In this document: piece after piece, positions 15,480 to 41,765 of the stretch
Layout: every line of letters starts with the position of its first letter
Position numbering within the stretch: the stretch's first letter is position 1
Assembly: GCA_041662665.1 (NCBI GenBank)
Contig: JBAZSC010000004.1
Span: forward strand, 76,464 to 136,403
Length of the DNA stretch: 59,940 nucleotides
Origin: Patescibacteria group bacterium
GTDB lineage: Bacteria; Patescibacteriota; JABMPQ01; JAQVVF01
Reading direction: 5' to 3'
Notes under the pieces: model-generated
Told to the model about the DNA's origin: nothing
Database searches by the model: none
The model's input: only the letters and a program-made list of their open reading frames with translations
Translations under genes and position numbers: made by a program

Positions 15480-15488
15480 AAATATTTT

Positions 15489-16394: not shown

Positions 16395-16453
16395 AAATAT
16401 ATTTAAAAATATTTTTACTAAACAGCTAATCCTGTGCCCTAAAAACCTAAGCC

Positions 16454-17899: not shown

Positions 17900-17919
17900 A
17901 ACAAAAAAGTTTTAAAAAT

Positions 17920-19194: not shown

Positions 19195-19195
19195 C

Positions 19196-20236: not shown

Positions 20237-20284
20237 AAATTTAAGACTTAACCTATCTTCACTATAATTAATTTTGACGCATCA

Positions 20285-20347
20285 GCATTCGTATCCGCGT
20301 TAGCATCCATATCGTATCCGCGTCGTTTCCGCAACGTTCCGCGATAA
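20285..20347. repeat. intergenic word repeat, (T)ATCCGCGT family
   Basis: cgtatccgcgttagcatccatatcgtatccgcgtcgtttccgcaacgttccgcg; family recurs at ~21400, ~24668, ~33548. Confidence 0.75.
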
Positions 20348-20392
20348 TATTTATTTATTTCAATAGAATTGCAATCTTATCAAATCGTTTTT

Positions 20393-21361: not shown

Positions 21362-21489
21362 TTTTTATTCTATATTATTACAACTAAATTTTTAGAGAGT
21401 ATCCGCGTTATATCCGTATTTTCCGCGTAAATTTATTATGAGTATTAAATTATTTTTCAAATATTATAAAAAATCAACGAAATTATTTA

Positions 21490-22914
21490 TCATTTTCGTT
21501 CAACATTGACTAAATAACCTTTTATATCTTGCATGCCAATTAACATTTGATATTTCATTAAACCTCTTTCAGCTAAGTTAACTGTCGAAATCTTTTTTTC
21601 ACCTGCTACAAAAAATGCTAATTTTATATATGGACGTAAGGTCAATCCATGGGCAGATCTCACAAAATTAACCTTTACAACATCAGATGAAACAATTTTT
21701 AATTCTTTTTCTGCTTTTTTCGCTGCCTTTTCGGCCTGACTGTCTGACATTTTTGAATCTAATTTATAATTTTTAATTAAATTCAATAAATCTCCATATC
21801 CTAATTTTTTCGCTAATTCAGAATCAATTGATGATGAAGCAGCTCCAGTATCAACTTTAGCCAAAATTTCAAAAGTACTTTTGCCATTCTTGCTTAATAC
21901 TTTAACTTTTTCAATTGAACCTAATACTTTTCTACCTAAAACTTCTGCTTTCTTAGTTGATACTGCGCCAAAAAGCTCTTTTGCAATTCTAACTCCATGA
22001 TCAACAGTTCTAATAGCCAATCCAGACACTCTTTCTAATCGCCTTGCTAATCCTAATAAATTTGCATTCTGAATTTCTAAACCAGGTCTTGCATTTAATT
22101 CCAAAATTTCTGGACCAAATTTTCGATCAATTGCAATGTCAACACCAATAAAACCCAAGCCAGATGCCTGTTGCGCTTCGATTGACATTTTTAGTATTTC
22201 ATCCCAAAAAGGCACCTGAAAACCATTTAATTTTTGTCCTGTATCAGGATGCGTAATTATTTCCGCTCTTTTGGGAACTTTTATAATTGAATGTGTCGTA
22301 ACACCAGTTGCGATATCAACTCCAACGCCAACCGCTCCTTGTGCTAGATTTGCTTTGCCTTTTGATAATTTCGTTGGCAATCTCAACATTGACATTACTG
22401 GAACCTTATTAAAAACAATCACTCGAACATCTGGAATTCCTTTATAAACATATTTTTTTAACAATGGATGCAAAACAATTTTTCTTTCAAAAAAAGCAAC
22501 GTCTGGAATACCAGATAATGAAAATCTACCGTCCAAAGTATCAAGAATATGCGATTTTAAATTTTCAAACGTTACTTCCTCGTTATCACTCTTAAACCAA
22601 ATCCTCTTTTCAATTGGTTTTTGCATAAATTCTTTTTTCTTCTCAGAAGAACGTAAAACCATTACTCCCTCTCCGCCAAATCCATGATCTGGTTTTACCA
22701 CAAAACTAACTGGCAATTTATTCCAATCAAAAGTATTCAAATCTCTTGAAATTTGAATCGCGCCATAAACTCGCGGAGTTTTTATTCCGGTTTTCCTTAA
22801 AACTTCTTTTGTTGCTAATTTGTCATCAACTACCCGAATATCATCTCTACGATTATAAACACGAATGTAACGTAAATTACGCTCATTCATGCCTAAAATA
22901 TCAGTTGCTTGCAT
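21490..22914 (-). CDS. alpha-L-glutamate-ligase-like ATP-grasp fused to a retropepsin-like (DTG) domain
   Basis: VVKPDHGFGGEGV, ILELNARPG ATP-grasp segments; C-terminal AKVDTGAASSSID aspartic-protease-like motif. Confidence 0.7.
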   Translation of the reverse strand: MQATDILGMNERNLRYIRVYNRRDDIRVVDDKLATKEVLRKTGIKTPRVYGAIQISRDLNTFDWNKLPVSFVVKPDHGFGGEGVMVLRSSEKKKEFMQKPIEKRIWFKSDNEEVTFENLKSHILDTLDGRFSLSGIPDVAFFERKIVLHPLLKKYVYKGIPDVRVIVFNKVPVMSMLRLPTKLSKGKANLAQGAVGVGVDIATGVTTHSIIKVPKRAEIITHPDTGQKLNGFQVPFWDEILKMSIEAQQASGLGFIGVDIAIDRKFGPEILELNARPGLEIQNANLLGLARRLERVSGLAIRTVDHGVRIAKELFGAVSTKKAEVLGRKVLGSIEKVKVLSKNGKSTFEILAKVDTGAASSSIDSELAKKLGYGDLLNLIKNYKLDSKMSDSQAEKAAKKAEKELKIVSSDVVKVNFVRSAHGLTLRPYIKLAFFVAGEKKISTVNLAERGLMKYQMLIGMQDIKGYLVNVERK

Positions 22915-22924
22915 AGATTATACT

Positions 22925-23022
22925 CTAAATCCTAGGTCCTAAACAAATCCAAAACTTAAATGGTCAATAATTTGATTTTGAACATTTACATTTTGATATT
23001 TAAATTTGTTTAGGACTAAGAA
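22925..23022. repeat. long imperfect palindrome built from CCTAAA/CAAAT words
   Basis: GTCCTAAACAAAT (22937-22949) pairs perfectly with ATTTGTTTAGGAC (23004-23016). Confidence 0.75.
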
Positions 23023-23023
23023 T

Positions 23024-24547
23024 TCAGGATTTTGATTTTTTCAACAACGATTTAAAACGAAAATACTCTGATAATCTTAATCCAGTCCATTTACCTAAGG
23101 CAATATTTATAATAATCGTCAATAAAACCAATTCAGGATAAGACAAGATCAAAGTCTTAAACCACTCCCAATTCACAATCCAATAACAAATTACTGAAAC
23201 CAAAATAGTTTCTAGAGATAATAAAATTGCTGTTGTTCCGCCTTTTTCGATCTGTACTGCAATAAATTTTTCAACCATTATTATCAATACTAAAATTGGC
23301 AAAATTGACAGAGTAATCATTCCTGTTCGATTAAAGTAGGCACCGACCATAAATAATAACAACAAAACCAAAGCAACAACGCACAGAACAATTGCCATTC
23401 TTGGCAGATAAAGCAATTTAAATCTTCTCAGTAAAAATCTTAGTGCAGATGCCACTAATAATATAATAATAAAAATAGTTAATCCGTATTTTAGGCCAGT
23501 TGCAATAAAACATAGAGTGATAATTGTCGGAGTATAAATACCAAAAGTCTTGATTCCTAATATTTGTCTTAAAAAAGCAATTAAAGTTGCAATAATTGGC
23601 AACATTAATAATAAAAATAAATTATCAATTGCCACACCCTTGTTAATCAAATAATTTATTGAATAACTTAAAAAATTAGTTACGCCTAACTTTGTAACTG
23701 CTCTTTCAGAATGTTTGCCAATTAAAGTATGCTCAGAATTATCCGACTGAACTTTTGATAATAAATCACCAGAATTATGAGAGCTAATAACCGAATTTAA
23801 ATAATTATCTTTAACTAACAAAATATATTCTGGCTTCAAAACATCATAAGTTGATTGCGCGATTCTCGCATTTGATTTTACATTTTTGCCGGCACTAACA
23901 ATTCCTTTTTGATCCATTCTAAAATCTGCCAAATTTCCTGCAGATTGAGCAAATTTTGACATTGCATTTAAGCCTAAACTTCCAGAAGTCCAAAGAATAA
24001 TAATATCAGCATTTTGAACATCTTCTTTTGCCTCAAGCAAAGCGTTAGACAAAGCTCCTTCAGTGACATAATCAGCTTCACCTTGCTTATTTAAGATCGT
24101 TACTAGTAATACCTGATTTCTAGAAGCCTCTCTTTTTAAATCTCGAAGCTGATCGGAAGTCGGAGTCTTGTCCGCAACTAATAAAATTAAATCTTTATAA
24201 ACATTAACTGTAACTTCATCCTTATCAGACTCGACACCATTATTTACAGTCAAAGTAACCTTATATTCGCCAGGCAAACTATAACTATGGATAACTTCTT
24301 TACCATCTGCAAAAGTTCCATCGCCAAAATCCCAAAAATACTCTATAAATTCGCTTTCTCTTGTATCTGTCGTTTTTGAGGCATCAAAAACTATTTTTTT
24401 ATCGACTGCAACATTTTTATCGCCACCAGCAGATGCTCTCAGTTCCAAAGACAACGAATCAAACTGAGCATTTGCCACAAAACCAAAACATAAAAAGACC
24501 ATCGTAAAAATAGCAAATACAACAGATAATATTTTATTTTTATTCAT
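23024..24547 (-). CDS. secreted PKD-domain protein with C-terminal 7-TM module
   Basis: Signal peptide after M17 (MNKNKILSVVFAIF); WDFGDGT PKD hallmark; seven hydrophobic helices in the last ~200 aa. Confidence 0.65.
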   Translation of the reverse strand: MNKNKILSVVFAIFTMVFLCFGFVANAQFDSLSLELRASAGGDKNVAVDKKIVFDASKTTDTRESEFIEYFWDFGDGTFADGKEVIHSYSLPGEYKVTLTVNNGVESDKDEVTVNVYKDLILLVADKTPTSDQLRDLKREASRNQVLLVTILNKQGEADYVTEGALSNALLEAKEDVQNADIIILWTSGSLGLNAMSKFAQSAGNLADFRMDQKGIVSAGKNVKSNARIAQSTYDVLKPEYILLVKDNYLNSVISSHNSGDLLSKVQSDNSEHTLIGKHSERAVTKLGVTNFLSYSINYLINKGVAIDNLFLLLMLPIIATLIAFLRQILGIKTFGIYTPTIITLCFIATGLKYGLTIFIIILLVASALRFLLRRFKLLYLPRMAIVLCVVALVLLLLFMVGAYFNRTGMITLSILPILVLIIMVEKFIAVQIEKGGTTAILLSLETILVSVICYWIVNWEWFKTLILSYPELVLLTIIINIALGKWTGLRLSEYFRFKSLLKKSKS

Positions 24548-24757
24548 AACTTTTTTTAATTTTTCATTTTCTCCAAAAATCAACATACCCGCCACTATCT
24601 TGTCAAGTTTTATAATAGAATTATAACAAAATAAATCAAAAAAACAAAGTAAATGTCAAGGTTTTTTAATTATCCGTTTGCCATCCGTTGAATCCGCGTA
24701 AAAGACGATAAAAACAAAAAACTTTTAAAGTTTTAAATAATTAGTTTGTACCGTTAA

Positions 24758-29260: not shown

Positions 29261-32200
29261 ATGTTTGATTTTAGACAAAAGGGCTTAGATAAGCCAAAAG
29301 TTATAAAAACTAATTCTTCAAATATGGCAAATCCAAAGAAAAAATCAGAAAAACAACGCAAAATTGTCATTATTTTTGTTGCTATAGTTACCTTTTTCTT
29401 TTTGGTTTTTGGCGGTATCTTTGCTTTTTATGCAAAAGATCTTCCATCTCCTAGTAAAATTAACTCTAAGAATGTCTCTGAATCAACAAAAATTTATGAT
29501 CGCACTGGAGAAACATTGCTTTACGAGATCCATGGTGGCGAGAAAAGAACGCTAATTCCGCTTTCTGAAATGCCAAAAAGTATTCAGGAGGCCACAATTT
29601 CTGCAGAAGATAAAAATTTTTATCATCATTTTGGTTTTGATCCTATCGGCATTATCCGATCTGCACTCAAGAACACAAAAAGCGATGAAAGAGTCGGCGG
29701 ATCAACAATTACTCAGCAATTAGTCAAAAATACGGCTTTGTCATCAGAAAAAACCTATACTCGAAAAATAAAAGAGCTTATTTTATCAGTTGAAATTGAA
29801 GCTTTATATACAAAAAAAGACATTTTGCAAATGTATTTAAACGAAATTCCTTATGGTTCAAATGCTTATGGTATTGAATCTGCAGCAGAAACTTTTTTTG
29901 GCAAGAAAGCCAAAGATTTAACATTAGCTGAATCAGCCACACTTGCTGCAATCCCTCAAGCTCCTACTTACTATTCTCCTTATGGCGCTAATACTGATGC
30001 TCTCAAAGCTCGCCAGGAATGGATTCTTGATCGTATGGTTGATGACAAATATATTACTAAAGAAGAGGCAGAGCAAGCAAAACAGCAAAAATTTGCCTTT
30101 GTTGAAAAGCAAGAAGGAATTATTGCTCCTCACTTTGTAATGTACGTAAAAGACTTACTTGTCCAAAAATACGGCGAAAAAGAAGTCCAAAAAGGTGGTT
30201 ATAAAGTTTATACAACTTTAGATATGAATTTACAGAAAATTGCTGAAAAAGTTGTTCCTGAAGGCGTCGATAGAAACTATTCATATGGTGCTTCAAATGC
30301 TGCCCTAGCTGCTGTTGATCCAAAAACTGGAGAGATTTTGGCTATGCAAGGCTCAAAAGATTATTTTGATAAAGAAAATGGCGGTAATGTTAATGTTACA
30401 ATCAGAAATCGCCAGCCAGGTTCTTCATTCAAGCCAATTGTTTACGCTTTAGCCTTAAAAAGAGGTTATACTCCTGATACTATTCTTTACGATGTTCCAA
30501 CCGATTTTGGCAATAATTACAAGCCAAGTAATTATGATGGCAAAACTCATGGTCCAGTTACAATGCGTACAGCGCTTTCAAACTCTCTAAATATTCCAGC
30601 TGTTAAAACATTGTATTTGGCTGGTCTTGAAAATACAATTAATTTTGCTCACGATTTAGGCATAACAACACTTGGCGATCCAAGTAATTATGGTTTATCT
30701 CTAGTTTTGGGCGGTGGTGAAGTTAAATTGCTTGATGAAGTATCTGCGTTCAGTGTTTTTGCTAATGATGGAATGAAAAATGATAAAAAAGCTATTTTAA
30801 AAGTTGTCGATCGCAATGGTAAAATCACCCAAGACAATACTAAAGCAGATCCAAAACGAGTTGTTGACGATCAAATTGCTCGCCAACTTTCAAGTATGTT
30901 ATCAGATACAAACGCTCGTCAAATGGTTTTTGGTTCTGCTCCAAATTTAAGATTATCTGATCGTCCAGTTGCTGTAAAAACAGGAACAACTGAAAATTTT
31001 AAAGACGCTTGGACAGTTGGATATACTCCTTCAATTGCCGCTGGTGTTTGGGTTGGCAATAACGATGGTGCTCCAATGAATGCTGGATCTGATGGCTCTT
31101 ATGTTGCTGCACCAATCTGGCATTCTTTTATGGAACAAGCGCTTGCTAACAAGCCAGTTGAAGAATTTCCAGGCTATGATCCAATTAAAGTTGATAAACC
31201 TGTTTTAATGGGCAAATCAGGCTCTGAACAAAAAGTCAGAATCGAAAAAACAACAAAAAAATTAGCAACTAACGATTGTCCAGCTGATGATGTCGAAGAA
31301 ATTACAGTCAGAAGCGCTCATTGTATTCTTTATTATGTTGACAAAGATAATCCAAGAGGCGAAGTTCCAAAAAATCCAGCAGTAGATCCTCAATTCAGAA
31401 ATTGGGAAAGTGGAGTGTTAGCTTGGGCAGGAAAAGATAATAAAGGCATTACCCAAATTCCAACTGAGACAACTGATGTTTGCAGTCCAGCTAAGAAGCC
31501 AAAAATTAATATTACATCTCCAACTGGCGGTTTGATTAAAGAGGATACTATTACTGTAACTGCTAATGCTTCTGCTCCAAATGGTCTAAAAAGCGTTGAT
31601 TTCGCAGTTGACGGCATTTCAATTGGCTCTTCAGCATCCGAACCTTTCTCTGCTAATTTTTATACTGGCAGATTTGAAAATGGCTTTCATACAATTTCAG
31701 CTACAGTTACTGACAAAATAGGTCAAAAAGCCAGCTCTCAAGTTACAATTGAAACAAAAGTTGACCGCGCATCATCTATTTCACTTTCTTCATCAGGTTC
31801 TGGCAATTTGACTAAACAAGATTTTCCAATCAGCTTAACTGCTTCAGTTGTTTATTCAGGAACATTGCAAAAAGTCCAATTTTTGCTTAATGGCGCTGTT
31901 TACGATGAAGTTGGCTCGCCTACTGGCAATTCATTCTCAACAAGCTTAGCCTATCCTGGAACAGGTTCATATTCAGTTCAAGCAGCAGCTGTTGATGAGA
32001 CTGGACGTGCAATCTTTAGTAATCAGGTTTCATTCTCAATTGCAGAAGCAAGTGTTCCAACAAAACCAACTGTACCAGAAAAACCAGTTGCACCGCAAAA
32101 ACCAGCTCCAGACACAACGAAAAATAAAAAATCAAGCTTCTTATTCAAAGTCATTAATAATCTAGCCTATCTAAGCAACTTTGATTTCAGAATAAGCTAA
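29261..32200 (+). CDS. bifunctional class A penicillin-binding protein (GT51 transglycosylase + transpeptidase) with C-terminal Ig-like repeats and a Pro-rich tail
   Basis: EDKNFYHHFGFD, GGSTITQQ (GT51); SSFKP, SNS, KTGTT (transpeptidase). Confidence 0.9.
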   Translation: MFDFRQKGLDKPKVIKTNSSNMANPKKKSEKQRKIVIIFVAIVTFFFLVFGGIFAFYAKDLPSPSKINSKNVSESTKIYDRTGETLLYEIHGGEKRTLIPLSEMPKSIQEATISAEDKNFYHHFGFDPIGIIRSALKNTKSDERVGGSTITQQLVKNTALSSEKTYTRKIKELILSVEIEALYTKKDILQMYLNEIPYGSNAYGIESAAETFFGKKAKDLTLAESATLAAIPQAPTYYSPYGANTDALKARQEWILDRMVDDKYITKEEAEQAKQQKFAFVEKQEGIIAPHFVMYVKDLLVQKYGEKEVQKGGYKVYTTLDMNLQKIAEKVVPEGVDRNYSYGASNAALAAVDPKTGEILAMQGSKDYFDKENGGNVNVTIRNRQPGSSFKPIVYALALKRGYTPDTILYDVPTDFGNNYKPSNYDGKTHGPVTMRTALSNSLNIPAVKTLYLAGLENTINFAHDLGITTLGDPSNYGLSLVLGGGEVKLLDEVSAFSVFANDGMKNDKKAILKVVDRNGKITQDNTKADPKRVVDDQIARQLSSMLSDTNARQMVFGSAPNLRLSDRPVAVKTGTTENFKDAWTVGYTPSIAAGVWVGNNDGAPMNAGSDGSYVAAPIWHSFMEQALANKPVEEFPGYDPIKVDKPVLMGKSGSEQKVRIEKTTKKLATNDCPADDVEEITVRSAHCILYYVDKDNPRGEVPKNPAVDPQFRNWESGVLAWAGKDNKGITQIPTETTDVCSPAKKPKINITSPTGGLIKEDTITVTANASAPNGLKSVDFAVDGISIGSSASEPFSANFYTGRFENGFHTISATVTDKIGQKASSQVTIETKVDRASSISLSSSGSGNLTKQDFPISLTASVVYSGTLQKVQFLLNGAVYDEVGSPTGNSFSTSLAYPGTGSYSVQAAAVDETGRAIFSNQVSFSIAEASVPTKPTVPEKPVAPQKPAPDTTKNKKSSFLFKVINNLAYLSNFDFRIS

Positions 32201-32224
32201 TAAAAATAATTAAAGATTTTAAAA

Positions 32225-32248
32225 ACTCGCCCACAAGCGAGTTTTTTG
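32225..32248 (+). terminator. rho-independent terminator after the PBP gene
   Basis: ACTCGC-CCACAA-GCGAGT then a T-run. Confidence 0.7.
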
Positions 32249-32364
32249 TTTACGCAATTTCTGCGTTAGCTTCTGCGTTTTTTCGCGTTAGATCTTTCTA
32301 AAAAACGCACATCTAATTATTTTTGCATAACAATTTAAGACGAAAAACATTAAAATTAATCCAA

Positions 32365-32388
32365 ATAAAAAAAGCACAAATTGTGCTT
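32365..32388 (-). terminator. terminator of 32395..33510
   Basis: AAGCACAA/TTGTGCTT palindrome with a T-run on the minus strand; near-identical to 33697-33720. Confidence 0.6.
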
Positions 32389-32394
32389 AAGGTA

Positions 32395-33510
32395 CTATTT
32401 CATTCTTGAAAGAACTGCGTTCTGATGTTCCTGCACCTCTCTTTCTTTGCGTAATCTTGTTTCAACTCTTTCTCTGCCTTCAGCAATTTTACGCAAAAGT
32501 ACAAGTGCTAATTCTGGATCATCTTTGCCATATTCTGCATGCCATCTAGTTGCTAGATCTAAGTCCTCTTGGTCATAGATTAAAAATCCTTTTTCATCGC
32601 TGAAACCCACGTTTTCAAAAACCATATATCTGACATATCTTCTCATGATTTCAAGAGCATAAACGTCATCTTCTGTCAGAGTACCAATAAGAGCAAGCAG
32701 TAATCTTTCATTGTAGGTTGGAAATAATCTGCAACCTTTCAAATTGAGCGCAAGCAGAAAGCCGATCTGATCAGCAAAAAGCGCAATTGAATATGGATTT
32801 TTTTTCAAGCCAACGAATGATGTAACGCGATCCGCATAGTGAGCAAACGCGCTCTCATGTTCTGCGCGAGGTTTCGCCTCTCCTTGTAATTCTGCCCTGA
32901 CAGTTACTCTCATCTTCAAATCTGCCAATCTCTTGTAGCGTTCGTTAACTTTAGGATTCCACATGAGATGTGAAAACGGATTATATCCTGAACAATCATC
33001 CATGTTGTTAAAGCAGACCAAATCGTTCAGAGAAATCCTGTTAAACAAATTATCAGCATCTGGTCCTTCAGGCAAATAGCCCAAGAGTGCAATCATCCAG
33101 GAATTATACCGATTAGCAAGCGAAAGATGATCCGTAAATTCATCTTTGCCTTCAAGTGTCAACCGAAAGAAGCTGACAACCAAATCAACAATATATTCAA
33201 TAAACTTTTCGCAATTAGCAACCAGGTCAAGTTCAAAACCATAAATACTAGAAAATGGCGTTACTAAATTCCAATTCTTTGGTGCGTTTTTTGGAGTTGG
33301 TGCAAGTAAGGCCAATATTGCACGCGCCTTGAATCTGTCGTTATAATCACCTTTTAGAATATCTACAAAGTAGCTGATAGAATCTCGTTTTGTTAGCTCG
33401 TGCCATTGTTTCCAAATCTCTTCATCAGCTTCAACAAAAAATCGCGGCCACCGTCTCTTGATGTCAGCAACCAACATTTCAGTTTTCGTTGCGCCTCTGA
33501 AAATTCCCAT
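32395..33510 (-). CDS. orphan 371-aa protein, SD-led cassette
   Basis: GAGGAGG upstream of M14 (MGIFRGATK); W/R/E/F-rich, GC visibly above the backbone. Confidence 0.6.
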   Translation of the reverse strand: MGIFRGATKTEMLVADIKRRWPRFFVEADEEIWKQWHELTKRDSISYFVDILKGDYNDRFKARAILALLAPTPKNAPKNWNLVTPFSSIYGFELDLVANCEKFIEYIVDLVVSFFRLTLEGKDEFTDHLSLANRYNSWMIALLGYLPEGPDADNLFNRISLNDLVCFNNMDDCSGYNPFSHLMWNPKVNERYKRLADLKMRVTVRAELQGEAKPRAEHESAFAHYADRVTSFVGLKKNPYSIALFADQIGFLLALNLKGCRLFPTYNERLLLALIGTLTEDDVYALEIMRRYVRYMVFENVGFSDEKGFLIYDQEDLDLATRWHAEYGKDDPELALVLLRKIAEGRERVETRLRKEREVQEHQNAVLSRMK

Positions 33511-33668
33511 CTTTCTTCCTCCTCTTCTTGGGGTTGGCTTTAGAATCATTTTTCCGCATTAAAATCCGCTCAATCCGCGCAATTTGTTCATTTTTTTATA
33601 ACATATTTTTGTGCAAGAATGATTTTGAAACACTCAAAATGAATTTTTAATTTTAAAGAGCATCTTTG

Positions 33669-33697
33669 AATATATCTTAATTTAAATTAATGGTCAA
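33669..33697 (-). promoter_or_regulatory. sigma70-like promoter (TTGACC-17-TATATT)
   Basis: Minus-strand reading upstream of 32395..33510. Confidence 0.45.
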
Positions 33698-33729
33698 TAA
33701 AAAAAGCACAAAATGTGCTTAAAAAAGTG

Positions 33730-34005
33730 CTAAATTTTTCCTTCAAGAGCCTTTTTCAATCTTTCTGCCAGCAGAGCGAGATAAACAACAACAAAGGATC
33801 CAATTAGTCCACTCATTATAGCTGCCACTATCGCCCTAAAAGTCATATTTTCATAGACCAACGGAATCGCATTAGTTAGTGACAAGTTTTGATTCTGCAA
33901 AACACATTGTGCTCCAATTCCCATCAGTACAAATGCGCTAAAACTGAAAAGAACAAATGTCATAAATCCAAGCAAACACATTTGAACCAAGTCTCCTTTT
34001 TTCAC
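33730..34005 (-). CDS. small 2-TM membrane protein, SD-led cassette
   Basis: AAGGAGG 7 nt before a GTG start; two hydrophobic helices. Confidence 0.5.
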   Translation of the reverse strand: MKKGDLVQMCLLGFMTFVLFSFSAFVLMGIGAQCVLQNQNLSLTNAIPLVYENMTFRAIVAAIMSGLIGSFVVVYLALLAERLKKALEGKI

Positions 34006-34078
34006 TCTAGCCTCCTTTGGTTGCTAGCCGTATTTCGGTACTAGCAACTTTGTCTACAACGAACTCTTCTGACAATAA

Positions 34079-34107
34079 AAAATAGCATGAAAACAAAAAT
34101 TTGTCAA
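34079..34107 (-). promoter_or_regulatory. sigma70-like promoter (TTGACA-17-TATTTT)
   Basis: Minus-strand reading upstream of 33730..34005. Confidence 0.4.
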
Positions 34108-34284
34108 TAATTTGACAAATTAAGCAAAATTTTACAAATTTTAATATTAAACAAGAAGAATGTGAATATCTTAATATCCGAATATCGTAATATCTTCAAA
34201 AATCAAAGCATTAGGGATCGCATTAGAGAAGTAGTTATTCGAGATAGCATTAGAGAAGAGTAATTAACAAAGCAAAAATCAAAT

Positions 34285-35130
34285 TCAAAAGCTTCTTTTT
34301 TTACCAACAATTACTTCGATTGTTTTTGGCACAATTTCAAAGACTTCCGGCACTTTTTTAATCTGTTGTCCATCGCAAGCCATTATTAATTTTTCTTTGC
34401 AATAGAATTTAATCTTTTTACCGCGAAAAAATGATAAATCAGATTCTTTTTGTTTTTTATTTCCGCTAAACATAATTAAATCCAAAATTTGGTCTTTAGG
34501 ATTAACTTTTGATAATTTTATTTTATTTTTTCCTTCAAAATTGATATTTCCTAATGAATTTATGACAGACATACTCGATAATTTTGCTTTTGCAAAGATT
34601 CTTTTATCTACATCAAAAGAAATCTCTGGCAATTTATTTCTAGAAATTGCTTTGATGACAGTTGTTAATTTTTCCCAAACTGTTTTTTTTCGATCCATAA
34701 AATCTGCATCAAAAGATGTCATAAAATAGCTTCCGTCAGCTCGGCCTAAATCAATTGTCTCAACTTTTCTACTAGTTAATGCCTCACAAATTGCATTATC
34801 ATAAGGTAATCCCAAAACATCAGCTATTTTTGATTCTCGTAATGGTACCATTCCAAAAACTGGCCAATTTTTGACTTGCGGATTAGCTTTCTTTAATTTA
34901 GCAATTGTATTTATGATCTGGCTCGCAGTCTTGTCTGATCCAACAGCAACTATTGTTGTATATCTACCATCTAGTATCGCATCATGCGCCAGAATATCAG
35001 CAGTTCTAAGTGGTGTTACTGATACTTTTTCATAACGAATGCCAAGATCAGAAAACTTTAGACTAATAATGTCTAAAAGTTTAGCTTGTTTATCTTTTAT
35101 TTTGTTTGATTCGCAAATAAAATAATACAT
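34285..35130 (-). CDS. DAGK-catalytic-domain (YegS/BmrU-like) lipid kinase, degenerate glycine motif
   Basis: VAVGSDKT in place of GGDGT, FGMVPL segment; start moved to M14 because the extension lies in the repeat palindrome. Confidence 0.5.
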   Translation of the reverse strand: MYYFICESNKIKDKQAKLLDIISLKFSDLGIRYEKVSVTPLRTADILAHDAILDGRYTTIVAVGSDKTASQIINTIAKLKKANPQVKNWPVFGMVPLRESKIADVLGLPYDNAICEALTSRKVETIDLGRADGSYFMTSFDADFMDRKKTVWEKLTTVIKAISRNKLPEISFDVDKRIFAKAKLSSMSVINSLGNINFEGKNKIKLSKVNPKDQILDLIMFSGNKKQKESDLSFFRGKKIKFYCKEKLIMACDGQQIKKVPEVFEIVPKTIEVIVGKKRSF

Positions 35131-35255: not shown

Positions 35256-35657
35256 CTATTCTTGTTCTTCTTCAGAAACATTGCTTTCTTCAATTCCCAT
35301 TTGACAATGTCCAGAAAACATCGCGCCGTCGCTGATTGAAATTGATGACACAACAACATCGCCAAAAATCTTGCCAGTTCCTGTAATGCTTAATTTTCCT
35401 GATGCTTTTACATTTCCTTCGACTCTTCCGCCTACTGTCACATTTTCGCCTGAGATATTAGCCTTGATTGTTGCTGTGTCGCCGATAGTTACATCTCTTT
35501 CAGTTACAATTTGGCCAACAACATCGCCATAAACGCTGATATTTCCAGTGCTGATCAAATCGCCTTCTAATTTTACCGATGATCCGACGATTGTCTCATT
35601 ATTTTCCGCTCCTCCAACAACTTCATCTTCGATTGGTTTTACGTTCTTTTTAAACAT
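35256..35657 (-). CDS. bactofilin (polymer-forming cytoskeletal protein)
   Basis: Repetitive beta-helix pattern VKLEGDL..GNISVYGDVVG..VTIGDTATI..GRVEGNV. Confidence 0.85.
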   Translation of the reverse strand: MFKKNVKPIEDEVVGGAENNETIVGSSVKLEGDLISTGNISVYGDVVGQIVTERDVTIGDTATIKANISGENVTVGGRVEGNVKASGKLSITGTGKIFGDVVVSSISISDGAMFSGHCQMGIEESNVSEEEQE

Positions 35658-35662
35658 ACGTT

Positions 35663-35732
35663 TAGTAATTAGTTAACTAGTAATTAGTAATTAGTGTCGG
35701 CACTAGTTACTAATTTCTAGTTACTAGTTACC
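35663..35732. repeat. palindromic word repeat (TAGTAAC/TAGTTAC family)
   Basis: tagtaattagttaactagtaattagtaattagtg tcgg cactagttactaatttctagttactagttacc; family recurs at ~43771, ~44385, ~55489, ~56690, ~57600. Confidence 0.8.
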
Positions 35733-35740
35733 GATTCACG

Positions 35741-36205
35741 CTATTCTTGTGCTTTTTCAATTGCTTGTTTTTCTTCATCAGACAAATTATATTCTGATTT
35801 TCCGCCTTTAATTGGTTTGGCAAACATTCTAGTTCCAGCTCTTGAATGAAGGCTAGAAACAATAATGCCATTATTATTTGCGTCTAGAAGTGCCATCGCA
35901 AAACTTTGATCTCCACCAGTATCTCCAAAAGGATTGAATCTGACTAATCCAACTTTCGTCAAGCTATTCATCATTATTTTGTTTAGCTGATCAGAAATAT
36001 TATAAAGCTCTTTGACATCAGTATCTATTCTTTTGATTTGTTTTGCACAATCATCAAGCACATTTTCTAATCCTTTTTCTTTTGCTTCAGCCAAAACTCC
36101 TCTTTTGTCAGAAACATAAGATCTAACTAAAAAAGTTAAATAAATCACCCATCCAAGCAATGCAAAAACAATAATAAAAAAGAAAATTAGAAACAAGTTA
36201 GACAT
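35741..36205 (-). CDS. DUF4446-like membrane-anchored protein
   Basis: N-terminal TM plus VRFNPFGDTGGDQSFAMALLD motif. Confidence 0.55.
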   Translation of the reverse strand: MSNLFLIFFFIIVFALLGWVIYLTFLVRSYVSDKRGVLAEAKEKGLENVLDDCAKQIKRIDTDVKELYNISDQLNKIMMNSLTKVGLVRFNPFGDTGGDQSFAMALLDANNNGIIVSSLHSRAGTRMFAKPIKGGKSEYNLSDEEKQAIEKAQE

Positions 36206-36261: not shown

Positions 36262-36282
36262 AAAAAACAGACATAAAGTCTG
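36262..36282 (-). terminator. terminator of 36294..36713
   Basis: CAGAC-ATAAA-GTCTG with a T-run on the minus strand; duplicated at 36825-36847. Confidence 0.55.
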
Positions 36283-36293
36283 TGCAATTCAGT

Positions 36294-36713
36294 TTAAGGT
36301 GCAATTGGAGTCGAGTTGGCTTCTCTTCTTAAAATTAAGACTGCTTTTTCGCCAAATTCTGTTTGGGTGATTGAAACATCAAAAAGATATCTTCCACTAG
36401 GTACAAATTTCGAAGCTACTTTTATGTCAATCAGTCCATTTTGAGGTTTTTCTTTTTCGCTAACATCAAGAAGTGCCATAATTTTAATTCGACTAATCAT
36501 GGTTTCCTTCAGGCTCAATGGCGGACACATCACAAGAACCAGATTTCCATCAATTCTGTAGCTAACTTCAATCCGTTTTTCAACAGGTACGATCTGTATT
36601 TCAGTTCCGCATTGCCTAATTGAGTCTAAAAGAATCATACTCACCATTCTTACAGCTGGATTCGAAGTAAATTCTACAGGTGCATCTTTGCAATCTCTTT
36701 CTGCTTCTGTCAT
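36294..36713 (-). CDS. stand-alone GspE/PilB-type secretion-ATPase N2 domain (no Walker motifs)
   Basis: GTEIQIVPVEKRIEVSYRIDGNLVLV...ISRIKIMALLDVSEKEKPQNGLIDIKV...FDVSITQTEFGEKAVLILR matches the domain preceding Walker A in T2SS/T4P ATPases; GGAGGGAAGGG SD before M24. Confidence 0.65.
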   Translation of the reverse strand: MTEAERDCKDAPVEFTSNPAVRMVSMILLDSIRQCGTEIQIVPVEKRIEVSYRIDGNLVLVMCPPLSLKETMISRIKIMALLDVSEKEKPQNGLIDIKVASKFVPSGRYLFDVSITQTEFGEKAVLILRREANSTPIAP

Positions 36714-36792
36714 TTTCCCTTCCCTCCTCTCTTGGGATGAATTTAAGGTACAATAAACAAAACTAATCAAAACACTGATCAATTATAATATA

Positions 36793-36821
36793 ATTATATC
36801 ATTTTTTAATATCTTTTTCAA
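36793..36821 (-). promoter_or_regulatory. sigma70 promoter TTGAAA-17-TATAAT
   Basis: Minus-strand reading; duplicated at 37366-37394. Confidence 0.55.
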
Positions 36822-36851
36822 GCATAAAAAAACAGACATAAAGTCTGCGAT

Positions 36852-37277
36852 CTAAAGTGCAAATGATGTTGGGTTTACTTCTCGATTCAAAATCAATATT
36901 GCTTTCTCGCCGAATTCTGTTTGTGAAACTGTAACATCAAAATGAAATCGTCTATCAGGCTTGTCTTGAACGCTGACCAACACATTTAACACGCCAGTTT
37001 GCGGCATTTCCGTCATATCTTCGTTTAGGAGAGCAATTTCTTTGATATGAGCAATGGCATAGCCATGCAAATTGAGCTGCGGACGCATCACAAGAGTAAG
37101 ATGTCCATCAATCATGAATTCAATTTCAACTTTGTTCCTAAAAGGAGTAACGTGAATTTCTGTTGCTCCTTGTATTACAGCATCTAGCAACATATTATTT
37201 ATCATCCATTCTGCTGGATTTGATATTGCTCCAGGCGCAGACGAAATGCTTTGGCAATCTCTTTTTTCTTCTGCCAT
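36852..37277 (-). CDS. stand-alone GspE/PilB-type N2 domain, tandem paralog
   Basis: GATEIHVTPFRNKVEIEFMIDGHLTLV...IAHIKEIALLNEDMTEMPQTGVLNVLV...FDVTVSQTEFGEKAILILNR; GGAGGG SD preceded by (AG)8. Confidence 0.65.
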   Translation of the reverse strand: MAEEKRDCQSISSAPGAISNPAEWMINNMLLDAVIQGATEIHVTPFRNKVEIEFMIDGHLTLVMRPQLNLHGYAIAHIKEIALLNEDMTEMPQTGVLNVLVSVQDKPDRRFHFDVTVSQTEFGEKAILILNREVNPTSFAL

Positions 37278-37365
37278 TTTCGTTTTCCCTCCTCTCTCTC
37301 TCTCTCTGAGCCAAAATAAATTACAACAAACTAAACTAATCAAAACGTTGATTAATTCTAATATA

Positions 37366-37394
37366 ATTATATCATTTCTTAATATTTTTTTCAA
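37366..37394 (-). promoter_or_regulatory. sigma70 promoter TTGAAA-17-TATAAT
   Basis: Minus-strand reading; lies inside the over-extended ORF-track ORF 36852..37394. Confidence 0.55.
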
Positions 37395-37459
37395 GCATAA
37401 AAAAACAGCGATGCGCCGTTAATTTAGTTATTTCTAATTTAGTTATTTTGTTATTAACA

Positions 37460-37545
37460 TGGTGGACCTGAGCGGACTCGACCATGAAAATTTTTTATTC
37501 AAAAATTTTCATCCTCCTGCTTGCAAAGCAGGCGCTCTGACATGA
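37460..37545 (-). pseudogene. 5'-truncated tRNA-Ala(UGC) copy with a 29-nt palindromic insertion and encoded CCA
   Basis: Shares anticodon arm (CCTGCTTTGCAAGCAGG), the T-loop with the 3' strand of the T stem (TCGAGTCCGCT; 5' strand lost) and the acceptor 3' strand with the intact gene. ATGAAAATTTTTGAATAAAAAATTTTCAT is inserted before the T-arm. The acceptor 5' strand is missing. Confidence 0.65.
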
Positions 37546-37553
37546 TTTATTTA

Positions 37554-37626
37554 TGGACCTGAGCGGACTCGAACCGCTCACCTCCTGCTTGCAAAGCAGG
37601 CGCTCTACCAGATGAGCTACAGGCCC
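37554..37626 (-). tRNA. tRNA-Ala (anticodon UGC)
   Basis: Cloverleaf folds by hand: GGGCCTG/CAGGTCC acceptor with G3:U70, anticodon loop TTTGCAA, T-loop TTCGAGT; no encoded CCA. Confidence 0.9.
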
Positions 37627-37663
37627 AATATAATAACAAAATAACTAAATTAGAAATGAAAAA

Positions 37664-38275
37664 TTACTTTCTTTCTTCTGTCTTGCTTAACGTATCAGTC
37701 ATTTTTACGTATAAATAAACTAATAACACGCCAATTAATGCCCCACAAGTATTCATTAACAAATCATTTGGCGTATCAAAGCGATCTCCTAGTCTATTAT
37801 TGCTTAGAAAAAAACTTTCTGAATATTCTTCAATCTCGTACAAGACTCCAAGAAAACAAGCTGCAAAAAAGGCATAACTTCCAATCAAATATTTTTTAAA
37901 TTCAACTCTTCTTCTTTTTAATACAGCGCAAAGTATGAAGAATATTAATCCAGCAACTGAAGCTCCGCCTAAGAAATGAGCCATTTGATCATACCATGAA
38001 AATCTGCCATACCATTTAAAAATATCTCCAAATGCATCAATCAACACATTTCCTAATGGAAACAAGAATACAAAACTTGGAATAGTATAATTAAATTTCT
38101 TTTTACAATACCATAACACAAATTCTAAAGCAATCCAAACTACAATTGATGTCAAAGCTAATCCAAACCAGCTAAATTCAAGTTCAAAATGTAAGATGCC
38201 AAAAAGATTAGCTAGCTCAAAACAAGCAAGTGAAGCAAAAGCAATCCTTACAAACCACAGAATTATAATATTCAT
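37664..38275 (-). CDS. polytopic membrane protein (weak VanZ-like resemblance)
   Basis: Five to six hydrophobic helices; FDTPNDLLMNTCGALIGV C-terminal motif. Confidence 0.55.
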   Translation of the reverse strand: MNIIILWFVRIAFASLACFELANLFGILHFELEFSWFGLALTSIVVWIALEFVLWYCKKKFNYTIPSFVFLFPLGNVLIDAFGDIFKWYGRFSWYDQMAHFLGGASVAGLIFFILCAVLKRRRVEFKKYLIGSYAFFAACFLGVLYEIEEYSESFFLSNNRLGDRFDTPNDLLMNTCGALIGVLLVYLYVKMTDTLSKTEERK

Positions 38276-38284
38276 AATAATGAA

Positions 38285-38548
38285 TTATTGTAATCCGCCT
38301 CCAAATAAGCCTTTTAGCATATTTGGTAATGTATGTTGTAAAAAACCAGTCATGTATAATGTTGAAACAGCAGCAATTAAAACGCCCAGCAGTTGCCAGA
38401 ACAATCTTCCGCCACCAAATGTCCCAAAATATTTTTGAGCAAAGCTTGGACTTCCGACATTATTAATTAACCATTCAGATTTTAAAGTTACAAAAACTCC
38501 AATTGCAATACCTATTAATCCTAAAAATATTTGGCCGATTAAAGACAT
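38285..38548 (-). CDS. small membrane protein
   Basis: Two to three hydrophobic helices, backbone-like AT-rich codon usage. Confidence 0.5.
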   Translation of the reverse strand: MSLIGQIFLGLIGIAIGVFVTLKSEWLINNVGSPSFAQKYFGTFGGGRLFWQLLGVLIAAVSTLYMTGFLQHTLPNMLKGLFGGGLQ

Positions 38549-38551
38549 GAA

Positions 38552-38630
38552 ATAACATTTAACATTTAACTTTTAACAGTTAACTCGCTATTTATAGCGT
38601 TAATTGTTAAGTGTTAATAGTTAATTGTTT
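38552..38630. repeat. palindromic word repeat (TTAAC/GTTAA family)
   Basis: aacatttaacatttaacttttaacagttaactcgc tatttata gcgttaattgttaagtgttaatagttaattgtt. Confidence 0.75.
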
Positions 38631-38633
38631 ACC

Positions 38634-38710
38634 TGGTGGGCGCACTTAGATTCGAACTAAGGACCTCGTCATTATCAGTGACGCGCTCTAACCAACTGAG
38701 CTATGCGCCC
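38634..38710 (-). tRNA. tRNA-Ile (anticodon GAU), CCA encoded
   Basis: GGGCGCA/TGCGCCC acceptor, D-arm GCTC/GAGC, anticodon loop CTGATAA, T-arm CTTAG-TTCGAAT-CTAAG, ACCA end. Confidence 0.9.
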
Positions 38711-38858
38711 ATAAATAAATAACAAAATAACTAAATTTTAAATAACAAAATATCTTTTGCTTTCCTTACTATTTTAACATCAAAAAATATTTCTTTCAAG
38801 TCTTTATGTCCAAAAGTTTTAAAAAGTGCAATATGTGTGTGCACATTACCCAAGAATC

Positions 38859-38887
38859 TTGACAATCTGCTTGCCTTATTGTATCCT
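38859..38887 (+). promoter_or_regulatory. sigma70-like promoter (TTGACA-17-TATCCT)
   Basis: Upstream of 38938..39600. Confidence 0.45.
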
Positions 38888-38937
38888 GATTTAAACGTTC
38901 TTTCCGACAATTTCCTAGCCAGAGGAGGAGGAAAGCG

Positions 38938-39600
38938 ATGAGCAACAGAGAGCCAGAAATCACACTGCCAGTAGTCATTCAACGGGACTTTTTCACTTCT
39001 CTTTCCGACGATCAAGCTATTCAGATCTTGATTCCTATCATTGGCGAAAAAGAAGCTCGCGCTTATGTCCAGAAGTGCCGTTATTTTGCAATTGACCATT
39101 TCAACAACTACGAGGGTACAATCTTTTGGTTGGTTAAAGCTGGCTACACACTGAAACAGCATGCTTCCAAACTTGGTCCGTGCTACAAGAATTTCGATTA
39201 TTTACAGACCTGGAATTTCAACGATGAGCCAACTTTTGACAGTCTTGTTTTCTGGGTTCCCAGACTTGTTCCTGACGGCATTCGAAAAACAGCAAATGAA
39301 CAGTTGAATTATCTCGCCAGACTTAGCAAGAAGTACGATCTGCCAGCCGATCATCTTACTGATTTCGGCAGTGTCACCTTAAACAGCGGTCTCATTTTGA
39401 GCTACTTCAACCAGACAAAGGAACGAGTTCCTCCGGATCGGTTGTGGATCAGGACTTCTGCTCGCGGCTCCGATGGCAGTCGTTTCGACCTGGGCGACTT
39501 TGATGAGCGAGGCCTCTACTGCAGCGGCTACGATTTGGGTGGCGGTTTCGTTGACGATCTTGGCTGTTTCGCTCTAGGTATTGTAAAGCTCGCAGCATAA
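38938..39600 (+). CDS. orphan 220-aa protein, SD-led cassette inside the 16S/tRNA-Ile spacer
   Basis: GAGGAGGAGG 7 nt before ATG; highest GC of any CDS here by eye (3' end near 50%); hairpin terminator follows. Confidence 0.6.
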   Translation: MSNREPEITLPVVIQRDFFTSLSDDQAIQILIPIIGEKEARAYVQKCRYFAIDHFNNYEGTIFWLVKAGYTLKQHASKLGPCYKNFDYLQTWNFNDEPTFDSLVFWVPRLVPDGIRKTANEQLNYLARLSKKYDLPADHLTDFGSVTLNSGLILSYFNQTKERVPPDRLWIRTSARGSDGSRFDLGDFDERGLYCSGYDLGGGFVDDLGCFALGIVKLAA

Positions 39601-39623
39601 TTATTTAAATTTTTAGTTCTTTC

Positions 39624-39652
39624 AACTCTTGATGTATTTCAAGAGTTTTTTT
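39624..39652 (+). terminator. rho-independent terminator
   Basis: AACTCTTGA-N6-TCAAGAGTT then a T-run. Confidence 0.7.
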
Positions 39653-39657
39653 ATTTA

Positions 39658-39735
39658 GAGCTTCGGAACGTCGGAGCTTCGGAACGTCAGAACGTCAGAA
39701 CGTCCGACGATCCGATTTCCGACACTCCGAAGCTC
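39658..39735. repeat. palindromic word repeat (CTTCGGAACGTC family), GC-rich
   Basis: gagcttcggaacgtcggagcttcggaacgtcagaacgtcagaacgtccgacgatccgatttccgacactccgaagctc. Confidence 0.75.
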
Positions 39736-39925
39736 TAAAAACGAAAACCAGCGCTTTTACGCTGGTCAAAAATAATATCCAATATCTAATATCCGTAATA
39801 TTCGAAGATACTTTGATAATCAAAAAGTGATAAGAGGGTCGATTAATTCCTTACATAATGAAAATAAATTCATCTCGACAGATCAATAAAAATCCATAAG
39901 ACTTTCAGAGATCAATTCTCCCTAG

Positions 39926-41541
<1,616 letters not shown>

Positions 41542-41765
41542 TAAATATCTATAATTAATAAATTAATCATAGATCAACTAAAAAATTTAAAGTAAGCTTG
41601 TTAGCTCAAAATAAACGGAATTAACGTAAAACTCTTATCACTATTTAATTATCAAAGTGCGAGAATTATAGACTGATTCTTTTTAATTTTTGAAGTTAAA
41701 AAATATCAAGCTACAATTTTCATAGCTATTTTTACAGATTTACTTGTAAGTAATTTAGTACTTAA

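Follow-up and report, generated by a model that had tools for sequence, protein, structure and literature searches.

Two tandem genes for stand-alone N2 domains of PilB/GspE-clade secretion ATPases in a variable island beside a tRNA-Ala gene of Patescibacteria

In a 59,940-nt stretch of chromosome from a Patescibacteria group bacterium (contig JBAZSC010000004.1, positions 76,464 to 136,403; the whole stretch is called the window in the following), we identified two intact, separately transcribed genes that encode stand-alone N2 domains of PilB/GspE-clade secretion ATPases. The two open reading frames (ORFs), ORF1 (P0001; 36294-36713, minus strand, 139 amino acids) and ORF2 (P0002; 36852-37277, minus strand, 141 amino acids), both begin with ATG and are both preceded by a GGAGG-type Shine-Dalgarno sequence. 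Their products share 45% identity (E=2e-41), which makes them paralogues, as an earlier annotation made from the DNA letters alone (below, the original prediction) had proposed for two ORFs of about 140 amino acids at these positions. Read in the direction of transcription, the ORF2 stop codon is followed by a terminator and then by the promoter of ORF1.

The original prediction had aligned both ORFs with the domain preceding Walker A and had let them end where the ATPase domain would begin, and profile searches bore this out. Against Pfam T2SSE (PF00437), ORF1 matched only profile positions 5-109 of 370 (E=1.4e-13) and ORF2 only positions 6-90 of 370 (E=4.8e-10), so that just the N-terminal part of the family is covered. 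The NCBIfam PilB and GspE equivalogs likewise cover only the N2 stretch (for ORF1, positions 175-285 of 564 in the PilB model TIGR02538), at scores far under the full-length cut-offs, and PilB chains from the PDB aligned with the ORFs at chain residues 200-312. Both ORFs stop 10-12 residues past the last N2 strand, within the linker that joins N2 to the C-terminal domain (CTD). Neither an N1 domain nor the tetracysteine zinc motif of assembly ATPases was found; PF05157 (GSPII/MshEN) gave no Pfam match in ORF1 or ORF2.

Structure prediction, one of the checks proposed with the original prediction, gave the same picture. The AlphaFold2 model of ORF1, computed from a 60-sequence alignment, has a mean pLDDT of 84.6, with residues ~20-130 above 90, and shows an alpha-beta3-alpha-beta3 topology preceded by ~17 disordered residues. 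The top Foldseek matches of this model were the N2 domain of Geobacter PilB (rmsd 1.0-1.4 Å over ~115 residues, 44-46% identity), followed by GspE and PilF, with PilT and DotB far weaker (PilT E ~1e-3). One detail of the original prediction has to be corrected: the pattern it gave as shared by the two ORFs (ASDIHI, R.RiDG, fRVSt, VlRil) is the canonical PilB consensus and not the ORFs' own letters, which read GTEIQI and ATEIHV, YRIDG and FMIDG, PQNGL and PQTGV, FDVS and FDVT, and LILR and LILN in ORF1 and ORF2, respectively, and it is precisely the conserved arginines at which they depart from the consensus.

The ATPase core, that is, Walker A, the atypical Walker B, the Asp box and the His box, is absent from both ORFs. 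We also searched the six frames of the window by tblastn with 29 full-length PilB and GspE proteins and found no core; the matches were the two N2 stretches, and weak ones to the P-loops of SMC and of a Mur ligase. The original prediction had named a fragment of a broken ATPase gene, with the core downstream in another frame, as the finding that would overturn it. A disrupted pilB is ruled out by the lack of core similarity in any frame and by what follows ORF1, namely a terminator and then the DUF4446 gene, which begins 88 nt past the ORF1 stop codon.

Structural work on Geobacter metallireducens PilB shows what an N2 domain does in the full-length enzyme. A rigid packing unit, with ~1600 Å2 buried, is made up of N2 from one chain and the CTD from the following chain, and this N2(n)-CTD(n+1) surface is the main inter-chain contact of the hexamer (PMC5424180). 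ATP is held between packing units, and N2 closes onto the ATP bound by the adjacent unit; R286 touches the phosphates, R271 touches E357 of the Asp box, and R257 bridges to E357 in the open state (PMC5424180). McCallum et al. 2017 described the two arginine fingers, R271 and R286, as completely conserved across the whole family (PMC5424180). We mapped these arginines through a HMMER alignment, on the assumption that an N-terminal tag accounts for the 20 extra residues of the 588-residue chain; this places R257 in PQDGR, R271 in (Y/F)RVS and R286 in VLRLL. Residues were then tabulated from the 60-sequence alignment, which holds 53 PilB-like sequences and seven of the nine stand-alone proteins described below.

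Among the 53 PilB-like sequences, the equivalents of R271 and R286 are arginine in 100% and that of R257 in 98%. Neither finger is found in ORF1 or ORF2: the equivalents of R257, R271 and R286 are L, D and I in ORF1, and V, D and I in ORF2. Across the seven stand-alone members the three positions read L/V/W/S/S/S/S, D/D/M/S/D/S/S and I/I/K/R/I/K/K. R49, R51 and R88 are mostly lost as well (R51 is present only in P0071 and R88 only in P0192), and the invariant D38 is replaced by E in six members and by K in one. By contrast, I39, K77, G121 and K123 are kept in 7/7 and P43, R75, L82 and E122 in 6/7. The net charge of the N2 core ranges from -6 to +3 in the stand-alone members, against a median of +7 in the PilB-like sequences. 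By this alignment, every stand-alone member examined (seven) has lost most of the conserved N2 arginines, and ORF1 and ORF2 have lost both fingers. The fold is preserved and the nucleotide-facing, arginine-rich surface is rewritten.

A survey for further stand-alone N2 proteins, also suggested beforehand, yielded a family of nine: ORF1, ORF2, P0071, P0151, P0152, P0156, P0158, P0192 and P0265, which are 120-146 amino acids long and consist of N2 only. A HMMER search of 1.84 billion representatives returned 9067 matches, of which we inspected the best 150. The queries aside, these were PilB or GspE or fragments of them, except for P0071 (146 amino acids, contig L008), a true stand-alone N2 domain, and two proteins with tandem N2 domains, P0003 and P0004. 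Profile searches added P0152 and P0192 (both on contig L018), P0158 (contig L019) and P0265; P0151 and P0156 also lie on L008. Almost all short stand-alone T2SSE matches in protein databases proved to be fragments at contig ends or high-GC PilB genes with a frameshift and an Arg/Pro-rich tail read out of frame, and only the nine were true stand-alone N2 proteins among the short matches examined. The eight intact members end a few residues past the GEKxxLxL strand and so have a common C-terminal boundary. The ninth, P0156, is truncated by an in-frame stop. This third N2 gene of L008 (N2c; 3547-3920) is cut by a TAA after codon 91, where L018 has Gln, and beyond the TAA it stays in frame to ...FGEKAVLVLKY; the stop is either a recent pseudogenisation or a sequencing error, and we take it as evidence that the array turns over.

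In a neighbour-joining tree, the seven aligned members form a clade (84/100 bootstraps, with long-branch attraction as a caveat), and ORF1 and ORF2 are sisters (91/100). T2SSE detects the N2a subfamily only barely (E=0.006). A word-index homologue search with ORF1 matched only ORF1 itself, GTDB genomes scanned with back-translated patterns from the ORF1/ORF2 profile gave no match, and scans of IMG/VR viral sequences for close relatives of ORF1, P0152 and P0192 gave no N2-only gene. PADLOC had no match for ORF1, ORF2 or the neighbouring ORFs without a family, and PHROGs returned only full-length T2SSE-like families for the N2 ORFs and no defence or phage family for those neighbours. As far as these searches reach, the family is small, forms one clade and occurs in a single Patescibacteria lineage. 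We found no description of a stand-alone N2 paralogue family in full-text literature searches or in a 2024 review of PilB cofactors (PMC11656802). What is new here is the ATPase-less, arginine-less and lineage-restricted architecture of a well-known domain.

The two genes lie in an island between a tRNA-Ala gene and a gene for a DUF4446 protein. The same order of an 86-aa membrane protein, a DUF2238-like 202-aa protein, tRNA-Ala, island and DUF4446 is shared by L008, whose island contains a 168-aa ORF, a 180-aa ORF (called p180) and three tandem N2-only ORFs, one of them with the in-frame stop. The island of L018 holds p180, two N2 genes and other cargo after tRNA-Ala; L019, a 1.4-kb contig, shows p180 followed by an N2 gene, with the flanks outside the contig. 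In the loci with flanks, N2 genes therefore stand in tandem arrays of two to three between tRNA-Ala and DUF4446, the contigs of L019 and P0265 being too short for this comparison. In L003 (Patescibacteria metagenome-assembled genome (MAG) STF1_73, GTDB), which is 97.4% identical to the window over a 2-kb stretch spanning the 16S gene, the site is empty and contains only tRNA-Ala, a terminator and the DUF4446 promoter, and in L002 (a MAG labelled Saccharibacteria, GTDB) an unrelated 216-aa exported protein is encoded at the same site. Because L003 and L002 share the flanks and lack the N2 genes, the locus is a hotspot whose cargo changes, with the N2 genes as an accessory part. A metagenome scan with DUF4446 recovered only distant relatives, in which the island is absent.

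The island also lies beside the 3′ end of a tRNA and is missing from close relatives (empty in L003, different cargo in L002). Adjoining the pair we found, as foreseen in the original prediction, both the tRNA-Ala gene and a partial copy of it. In the partial copy, a 29-nt AT-rich hairpin (ATGAAAATTTTTGAATAAAAAATTTTCAT) takes the place of the variable loop and the 5′ strand of the T-stem. Between the window and L008, its 63-nt core shares 98% identity, against only 90% for the functional tRNA-Ala genes. The copy is present in 3/3 loci with N2 genes (in L008 at 1461-1523, in L018 at ~71-140) and absent from the two without them (L002, L003). In the window it is the fragment, and not the intact tRNA-Ala, that carries the encoded CCA and the ancestral 3′ flank. 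Copy and tRNA are separated by 15-100 nt, and relative to the cargo the copy is on the side towards the tRNA instead of at the far end. No integrase or phage genes were found in the island, and exact-pattern scans for the hairpin of the fragment in GTDB and IMG/VR gave no match.

Some further observations concern the same site. A perfect 27-nt inverted repeat (37430-37456 and 37631-37657, 174 nt between the arms) brackets tRNA-Ala and its partial copy, and in L008 and L018 shorter inverted repeats directly flank tRNA-Ala (CCCTCACCTTTTT and AAAAAGGTGAGGG); the repeat may serve as a stem for processing or have arisen when the 5′ flank of the tRNA was duplicated in inverted orientation. The p180 gene (L008 2083-2625, L018 374-916, L019 175-717) stands before the N2 genes in each of these relatives, with 85-87% identity between its copies, and is absent from the window. 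Homologues of p180 with 33-38% identity occur in four IMG/VR viral contigs (L020-L023, 30-138 kb), with no N2 gene nearby. DUF4446 and a bactofilin gene (35256-36205, minus strand) follow directly downstream of the island and are kept with or without it.

Each N2 gene has its own expression signals (Table 1). The original prediction had described the whole unit as duplicated; the promoter, the Shine-Dalgarno sequence and the terminator do occur twice. The leaders measure ~73 nt for ORF1 and ~82 nt for ORF2, with the transcription start taken ~7 nt after the -10 element. Terminator-like sites were observed four times against 0.7 expected, and a third terminator is placed before the ORF2 unit just as the ORF2 terminator is placed before the ORF1 unit. 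Between the units, the block of T-run, promoter and 5′ leader is 87% identical (81/93) and the terminators are 96% identical, whereas the coding sequence with the 3′ leader is 59% identical and synonymous sites are saturated. For a 40-nt promoter block and a 25-nt leader block, the window has exactly two occurrences each, where 0 were expected. The likeness of these signals was kept by selection or by repeated conversion, and its patchy pattern argues for selection.

Table 1 Features of the two N2 transcription units and of the adjoining tRNA region. Positions are those of the window.
Feature	Positions	Strand	Basis or remark
ORF1 intrinsic terminator, CAGAC-TTTAT-GTCTG + T-run	36267..36283	-	scan
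Mosaic tract in ORF1 (codons 16-50, helix alpha1 to strand beta2)	36564..36666	-	L025 comparison
ORF1 5′ leader	36714..36786	-	hairpin/inverted repeat ~36764-36781 in conserved 5′ half; polypurine 3′ half with Shine-Dalgarno sequence
ORF1 promoter, TTGAAA-17-TATAAT, TG extended -10	36793..36821	-	11/12 consensus match
ORF2 intrinsic terminator	36832..36848	-	T-run abuts ORF1 promoter
ORF2 5′ leader	37278..37359	-	TAATCAA-N4-TTGATTA in predicted hairpin ~37333-37358; GA-rich Shine-Dalgarno region
ORF2 promoter, TTGAAA-17-TATAAT, TG extended -10	37366..37394	-	11/12 consensus match
Third terminator	37404..37420	-	closes tRNA-Ala unit just upstream of ORF2 promoter
Partial tRNA-Ala copy (D-stem 3′ side to CCA)	37460..37545	-	sequence reading; exact repeats D6, D7
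tRNA-Ala(UGC)	37553..37627	-	ARAGORN; Rfam 68.1 bits; upstream island boundary

In both units, a leader hairpin is predicted directly after the -10 element. The two arm positions that differ in the ORF1 unit are G, giving G-U pairs where the ORF2 unit has A-U; this speaks slightly more for an RNA hairpin than for a DNA operator, on the basis of only two sequences. The fold z-scores of the leaders are weak (-0.8 and -1.3), and, tRNA-Ala excepted, no Rfam family reached its gathering score in the leaders or the island. A riboswitch in the leaders is thus unsupported.

We estimated selection on these genes by the method of Nei and Gojobori, as the ratio of nonsynonymous to synonymous substitution rates (dN/dS). 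ORF1 and ORF2 gave 0.31, with a synonymous divergence (dS) of 1.37, which is saturated. N2a orthologue pairs gave 0.27-0.42 (dS 0.8-0.9) and the N2c pair 0.44 (dS 0.23), p180 gave 0.15-0.22 (dS 0.28-0.52), and in the flanking genes the values were 0.01-0.05 for DUF4446 (dS 0.9-1.9) and 0.07-0.09 for the 202-aa membrane protein (dS 1.8-2.5). With dN/dS of 0.27-0.44 in the unsaturated pairs, the N2 genes are under purifying selection and are not pseudogenes. This ratio is 5-30 times higher than the 0.01-0.09 of the flanking genes, and constraint is weaker than in these neighbours by the same factor. The DUF4446 protein, in turn, is 93-97% identical across the relatives at the dS given above, which indicates unusually strong constraint for a protein without an assigned function; that this identity merely reflects very close relatives is ruled out by the dS and by the 97.4% 16S identity.

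Exact-protein look-ups recovered the window haplotype at 100% identity in two further data sets, L001 and L026. A third, L025 (JGI 3300014208), carries a 98.9% variant with 16 mismatches over 1468 nt, all of them within 103 nt of ORF1. They cause seven replacements (A20S, S25N, I32V, R33K, C35G, G36A and T37V), and there are zero differences in the rest of ORF1, DUF4446, bactofilin and the spacers. Over 102 nt, the L025 allele differs from ORF2 at 36 positions and the window allele at 42, and several L025 codons are those of ORF2. The mosaic is a tract left by recombination or gene conversion. It probably arose when the paralogues exchanged sequence or a diverged allele was imported, because the L025 codons are nearer to ORF2. 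Samples in which the locus is present are SRR18595301, ERZ27249449, JGI 3300014208, SRR22388177, SRR22387786 and SRR22388062. The phage protein Tip maps to N2 of Pseudomonas aeruginosa PilB, at residues 187-227 and P208/Y209 (PMC11656802). By alignment, the mosaic tract would correspond to this segment, which we regard as a lead and not as evidence.

Beyond the island, the window is ordinary chromosome with dnaA-dnaN, genes for a class A penicillin-binding protein (PBP), SMC, trigger factor, tyrosyl-tRNA synthetase and ThiI, a glycosyltransferase/ATP-grasp cluster, a 16S rRNA gene, tRNA-Ile and tRNA-Ala, and without pilus genes. The rRNA operon is interrupted (37553-41545) and consists of 16S, tRNA-Ile, genes for membrane proteins (87 amino acids, and 203 amino acids, DUF2238/VanZ-like) and tRNA-Ala, with no 23S gene in the window; the 16S region of L002 contains an inserted ORF of the LAGLIDADG type. 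The spacer between 16S and tRNA-Ile (38711-39925) is ~1216 nt long, against ~288 nt in L003. It contains an ORF on the opposite strand (38938-39600, plus strand, 220 amino acids) with a GC content of 46.5% and a third-position GC content (GC3) of 49%, against 20-25% GC3 in neighbouring genes, and with no Pfam, PHROGs or PADLOC match. This region looks like a foreign insertion within the rRNA-tRNA cluster. A second variable spot is the ~2.1 kb between the diacylglycerol-kinase-like and PBP1 genes (32200-34285), which is absent from L003, where the two genes abut, and replaced by different DNA in L002. Its ORFs encode a 384-aa protein without family match (32395-33549, minus strand, GC3 0.34) and a 91-aa membrane protein (33730-34005, minus strand). 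The long same-strand cluster at 8702-24595 (minus strand) comprises GT4 and GT2 glycosyltransferases, RimK/'sugar-transfer associated' ATP-grasp proteins (one with a zinc-protease domain), a Mur-ligase-like protein, and a membrane protein of the PKD and 7TM-transglutaminase type, and looks like a surface-polymer or peptide-modification locus.

As to function, we tentatively propose that ORF1 and ORF2 are catalytically dead N2 mimics, whose binding to a PilB-type ATPase would modulate or poison the assembly of pili. A free N2 is the simplest conceivable competitor for the CTD surface, because the N2(n)-CTD(n+1) contact is the largest between chains. It could bind a PilB-type CTD at the surface normally taken by the N2 of the neighbour, or another N2 partner. 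Packing units holding it would be unable to sense or hydrolyse ATP, as N2 proteins without arginine fingers presumably cannot supply the N2 function to an ATPase, and a hexamer that took one up would be capped or carry dead interfaces. Assembly of the type IV pilus, or of a competence pilus, would then be capped, poisoned or down-tuned, and such a switch might serve to shut down pili that act as phage receptors or to change between pilus systems. An inhibitor or regulator is the best-supported reading because of the precedents CpiA, Tip/Aqs1/Zip and a FimU mimic (see below) and because of the conservation of pil genes: pilB, pilT, pilC and pilM are well conserved across Patescibacteria, and in cultivated Saccharibacteria type IV pili drive host binding, twitching and competition (PMC12206443). 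The loss of the arginine fingers, the location in an accessory, variable island and the fast, mosaic evolution are compatible with the regulator or dominant-negative cap suggested in the original prediction. That prediction did not include the arginine loss, the wider family, the lack of the genes in close relatives or the fact that promoter and leader are far better conserved than the coding sequence. The near-consensus promoters, the leader hairpin or operator, the presence/absence pattern and the mosaic alleles suggest that the function is accessory, regulated and subject to conflict-type selection.

Several points weigh against this proposal. There is no pilB or pilT within the 59,940 nt of the window and no type IV pilus gene neighbours ORF1 or ORF2 there; in the relatives, the N2 genes follow p180 and not pilus genes. 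With nine proteins, and with the relatives represented by short contigs only, the family permits only weak generalisation. A dN/dS below 1 is by itself no proof of conflict-type selection, and plain gene conversion would explain the mosaic tract. A bolder version, which we consider unlikely, would make the arginine-less N2 proteins mobile, diversifying motor mimics that, by entering or capping PilB hexamers, turn type IV pili off, with alleles of the alpha1-beta2 region reshuffled and with the tandem N2 fusions from soil as an independent invention; they might then serve receptor shutdown against pilus-dependent phages, or competition and control of host attachment in episymbiotic Patescibacteria.

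Some of the same evidence could be read differently. The N2 fold, a small alpha/beta module, may have been co-opted for a job outside secretion ATPases, binding protein, nucleic acid or a ligand, with cargo such as p180 as partner. The missing pilus genes in the window would fit this, as would the remodelling of most surface arginines with the shifted net charge, the barely scoring N2a subfamily, and the constant position of the N2 genes after p180, a gene with viral homologues, in L008, L018 and L019. However, the window locus has no p180 and the viral p180 loci have no N2 gene, and ORF1 is as close to the N2 domain of Geobacter PilB as to its own paralogue, which is unusually high for a protein with a changed partner; on balance we hold co-option to be rather unlikely. 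That free N2 domains are decoys, soaking up N2-targeting factors such as Tip-like phage inhibitors or a host regulator and so protecting pilus assembly, appears improbable to us. A decoy would need the fold and the surface and could dispense with the catalytic arginines, and the sole tract that differs between otherwise identical strains is the alpha1-beta2 region equivalent to the Tip-mapped segment. This equivalence, however, comes from alignment only, no Tip-like gene is known in Patescibacteria phages, and the known Tip and Aqs1 benefit a lysogen, so that a host decoy lacks an obvious selective logic.

We also give little credence to the idea that the genes are decaying pilB remnants of a degraded mobile element, transcribed without function. 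The island setting next to a tRNA and a partial copy of it, the absence from close relatives, the in-frame stop of the L008 N2c gene and the lost catalytic residues would all be expected of such debris. Eight intact ORFs with the same domain boundary would not, nor would a dN/dS of 0.27-0.44 in place of ~1, a confident AlphaFold2 model with a conserved hydrophobic core, near-consensus promoters and terminators that remain 87-96% identical despite saturated synonymous sites, or a window without any trace of the ATPase core. A split ATPase, in which a free N2 would serve in trans as the N-terminal lobe of an ATPase that lacks one, is geometrically conceivable. Complementation of this kind is very unlikely because both arginine fingers, completely conserved in the ATPase family (PMC5424180), are missing from ORF1 and ORF2; in addition, the genes are missing from relatives at 97.4% 16S identity and so are not core machinery, and they come in two or three copies. 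If the mimic proposal holds, the proteins would add a new principle to the regulation of PilT/VirB11-like ATPases, in which a domain mimic inhibits at the packing-unit interface, and would offer a ready-made tool to probe hexamer assembly; if the genes are driven by conflict, they would join the small number of candidate phage-interaction genes known from bacteria of the candidate phyla radiation. Should their job be unrelated, a very well studied fold would still have gained a new domain architecture.

The nearest known system is the PilB/GspE ATPase itself, whose N2 fold (PF00437; PDB 5TSG/5TSH, 5ZFR, 1P9R) and core motifs SRIKIM and FGEK are common to ORF1 and ORF2. In contrast to these enzymes, ORF1 and ORF2 have neither N1 nor the CTD with its Walker A/B, Asp box, His box and zinc motif; besides both arginine fingers, four further conserved arginines have been replaced, and the genes are stand-alone, in tandem and part of an accessory island.

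The natural PilB regulators known so far are unrelated small proteins or cyclic di-GMP adaptors (PMC11656802). In Acinetobacter baylyi, CpiA is a small, strain-specific PilB inhibitor that is controlled by the repressor CpiR and is thought to be horizontally acquired (PMC11656802). ORF1 and ORF2 are likewise small and accessory, and the inverted repeat in their leaders could be an operator for analogous control; however, we identified no repressor gene beside them and no sign of sequence or fold kinship with CpiA, whose binding to PilB is experimental, whereas that of ORF1 and ORF2 is inferred. The phage proteins Tip and Aqs1, and Zip via PilZ, are small proteins that stop pilus extension through the PilB complex, with Tip mapping to PilB N2 (PMC11656802). 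Unlike these, which are not homologues of their target and are unrelated to ORF1 and ORF2, the N2 proteins share the fold of the presumed target: Aqs1 is a helical dimer with a helix-turn-helix and a four-helix bundle (PMC11656802), while ORF1 and ORF2 are alpha/beta N2 domains. A FimU-like pilus component encoded by a prophage acts in anti-phage defence (PMC12952977) and shares the concept of a machine part on accessory DNA that interferes with the machine. It mimics a minor pilin and not the motor, and the island of ORF1 and ORF2 holds no integrase or phage gene.

Two soil-metagenome proteins, P0003 (447 amino acids) and P0004 (640 amino acids), contain two N2 domains without an ATPase core and, like ORF1 and ORF2, are free of arginine fingers: both finger positions are substituted in all four repeats (read by eye), with R257 partly kept. 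In P0003 (L009, a 1.8-kb contig) the N2 pair follows a lipoyl-like domain, and in P0004 (L024, 8001-9923) it follows transmembrane segments and a zinc ribbon, with no type IV pilus genes in the context. They differ from ORF1 and ORF2 in having the N2 domains fused in one chain and in coming from high-GC organisms. Both were the best non-self matches of the HMMER search, but we rejected them as closest relatives, this rank reflecting two N2 repeats and not kinship. They may form an independent class of ATPase-less N2 proteins, in which case the theme would be wider. A last parallel is HP1451 of Helicobacter pylori, a small protein that binds the N-terminal-domain face of the hexameric VirB11-type ATPase HP0525 and holds this ATPase inactive. 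Unlike ORF1 and ORF2, HP1451 has an unrelated fold and is not a paralogue of a domain of the ATPase it regulates.

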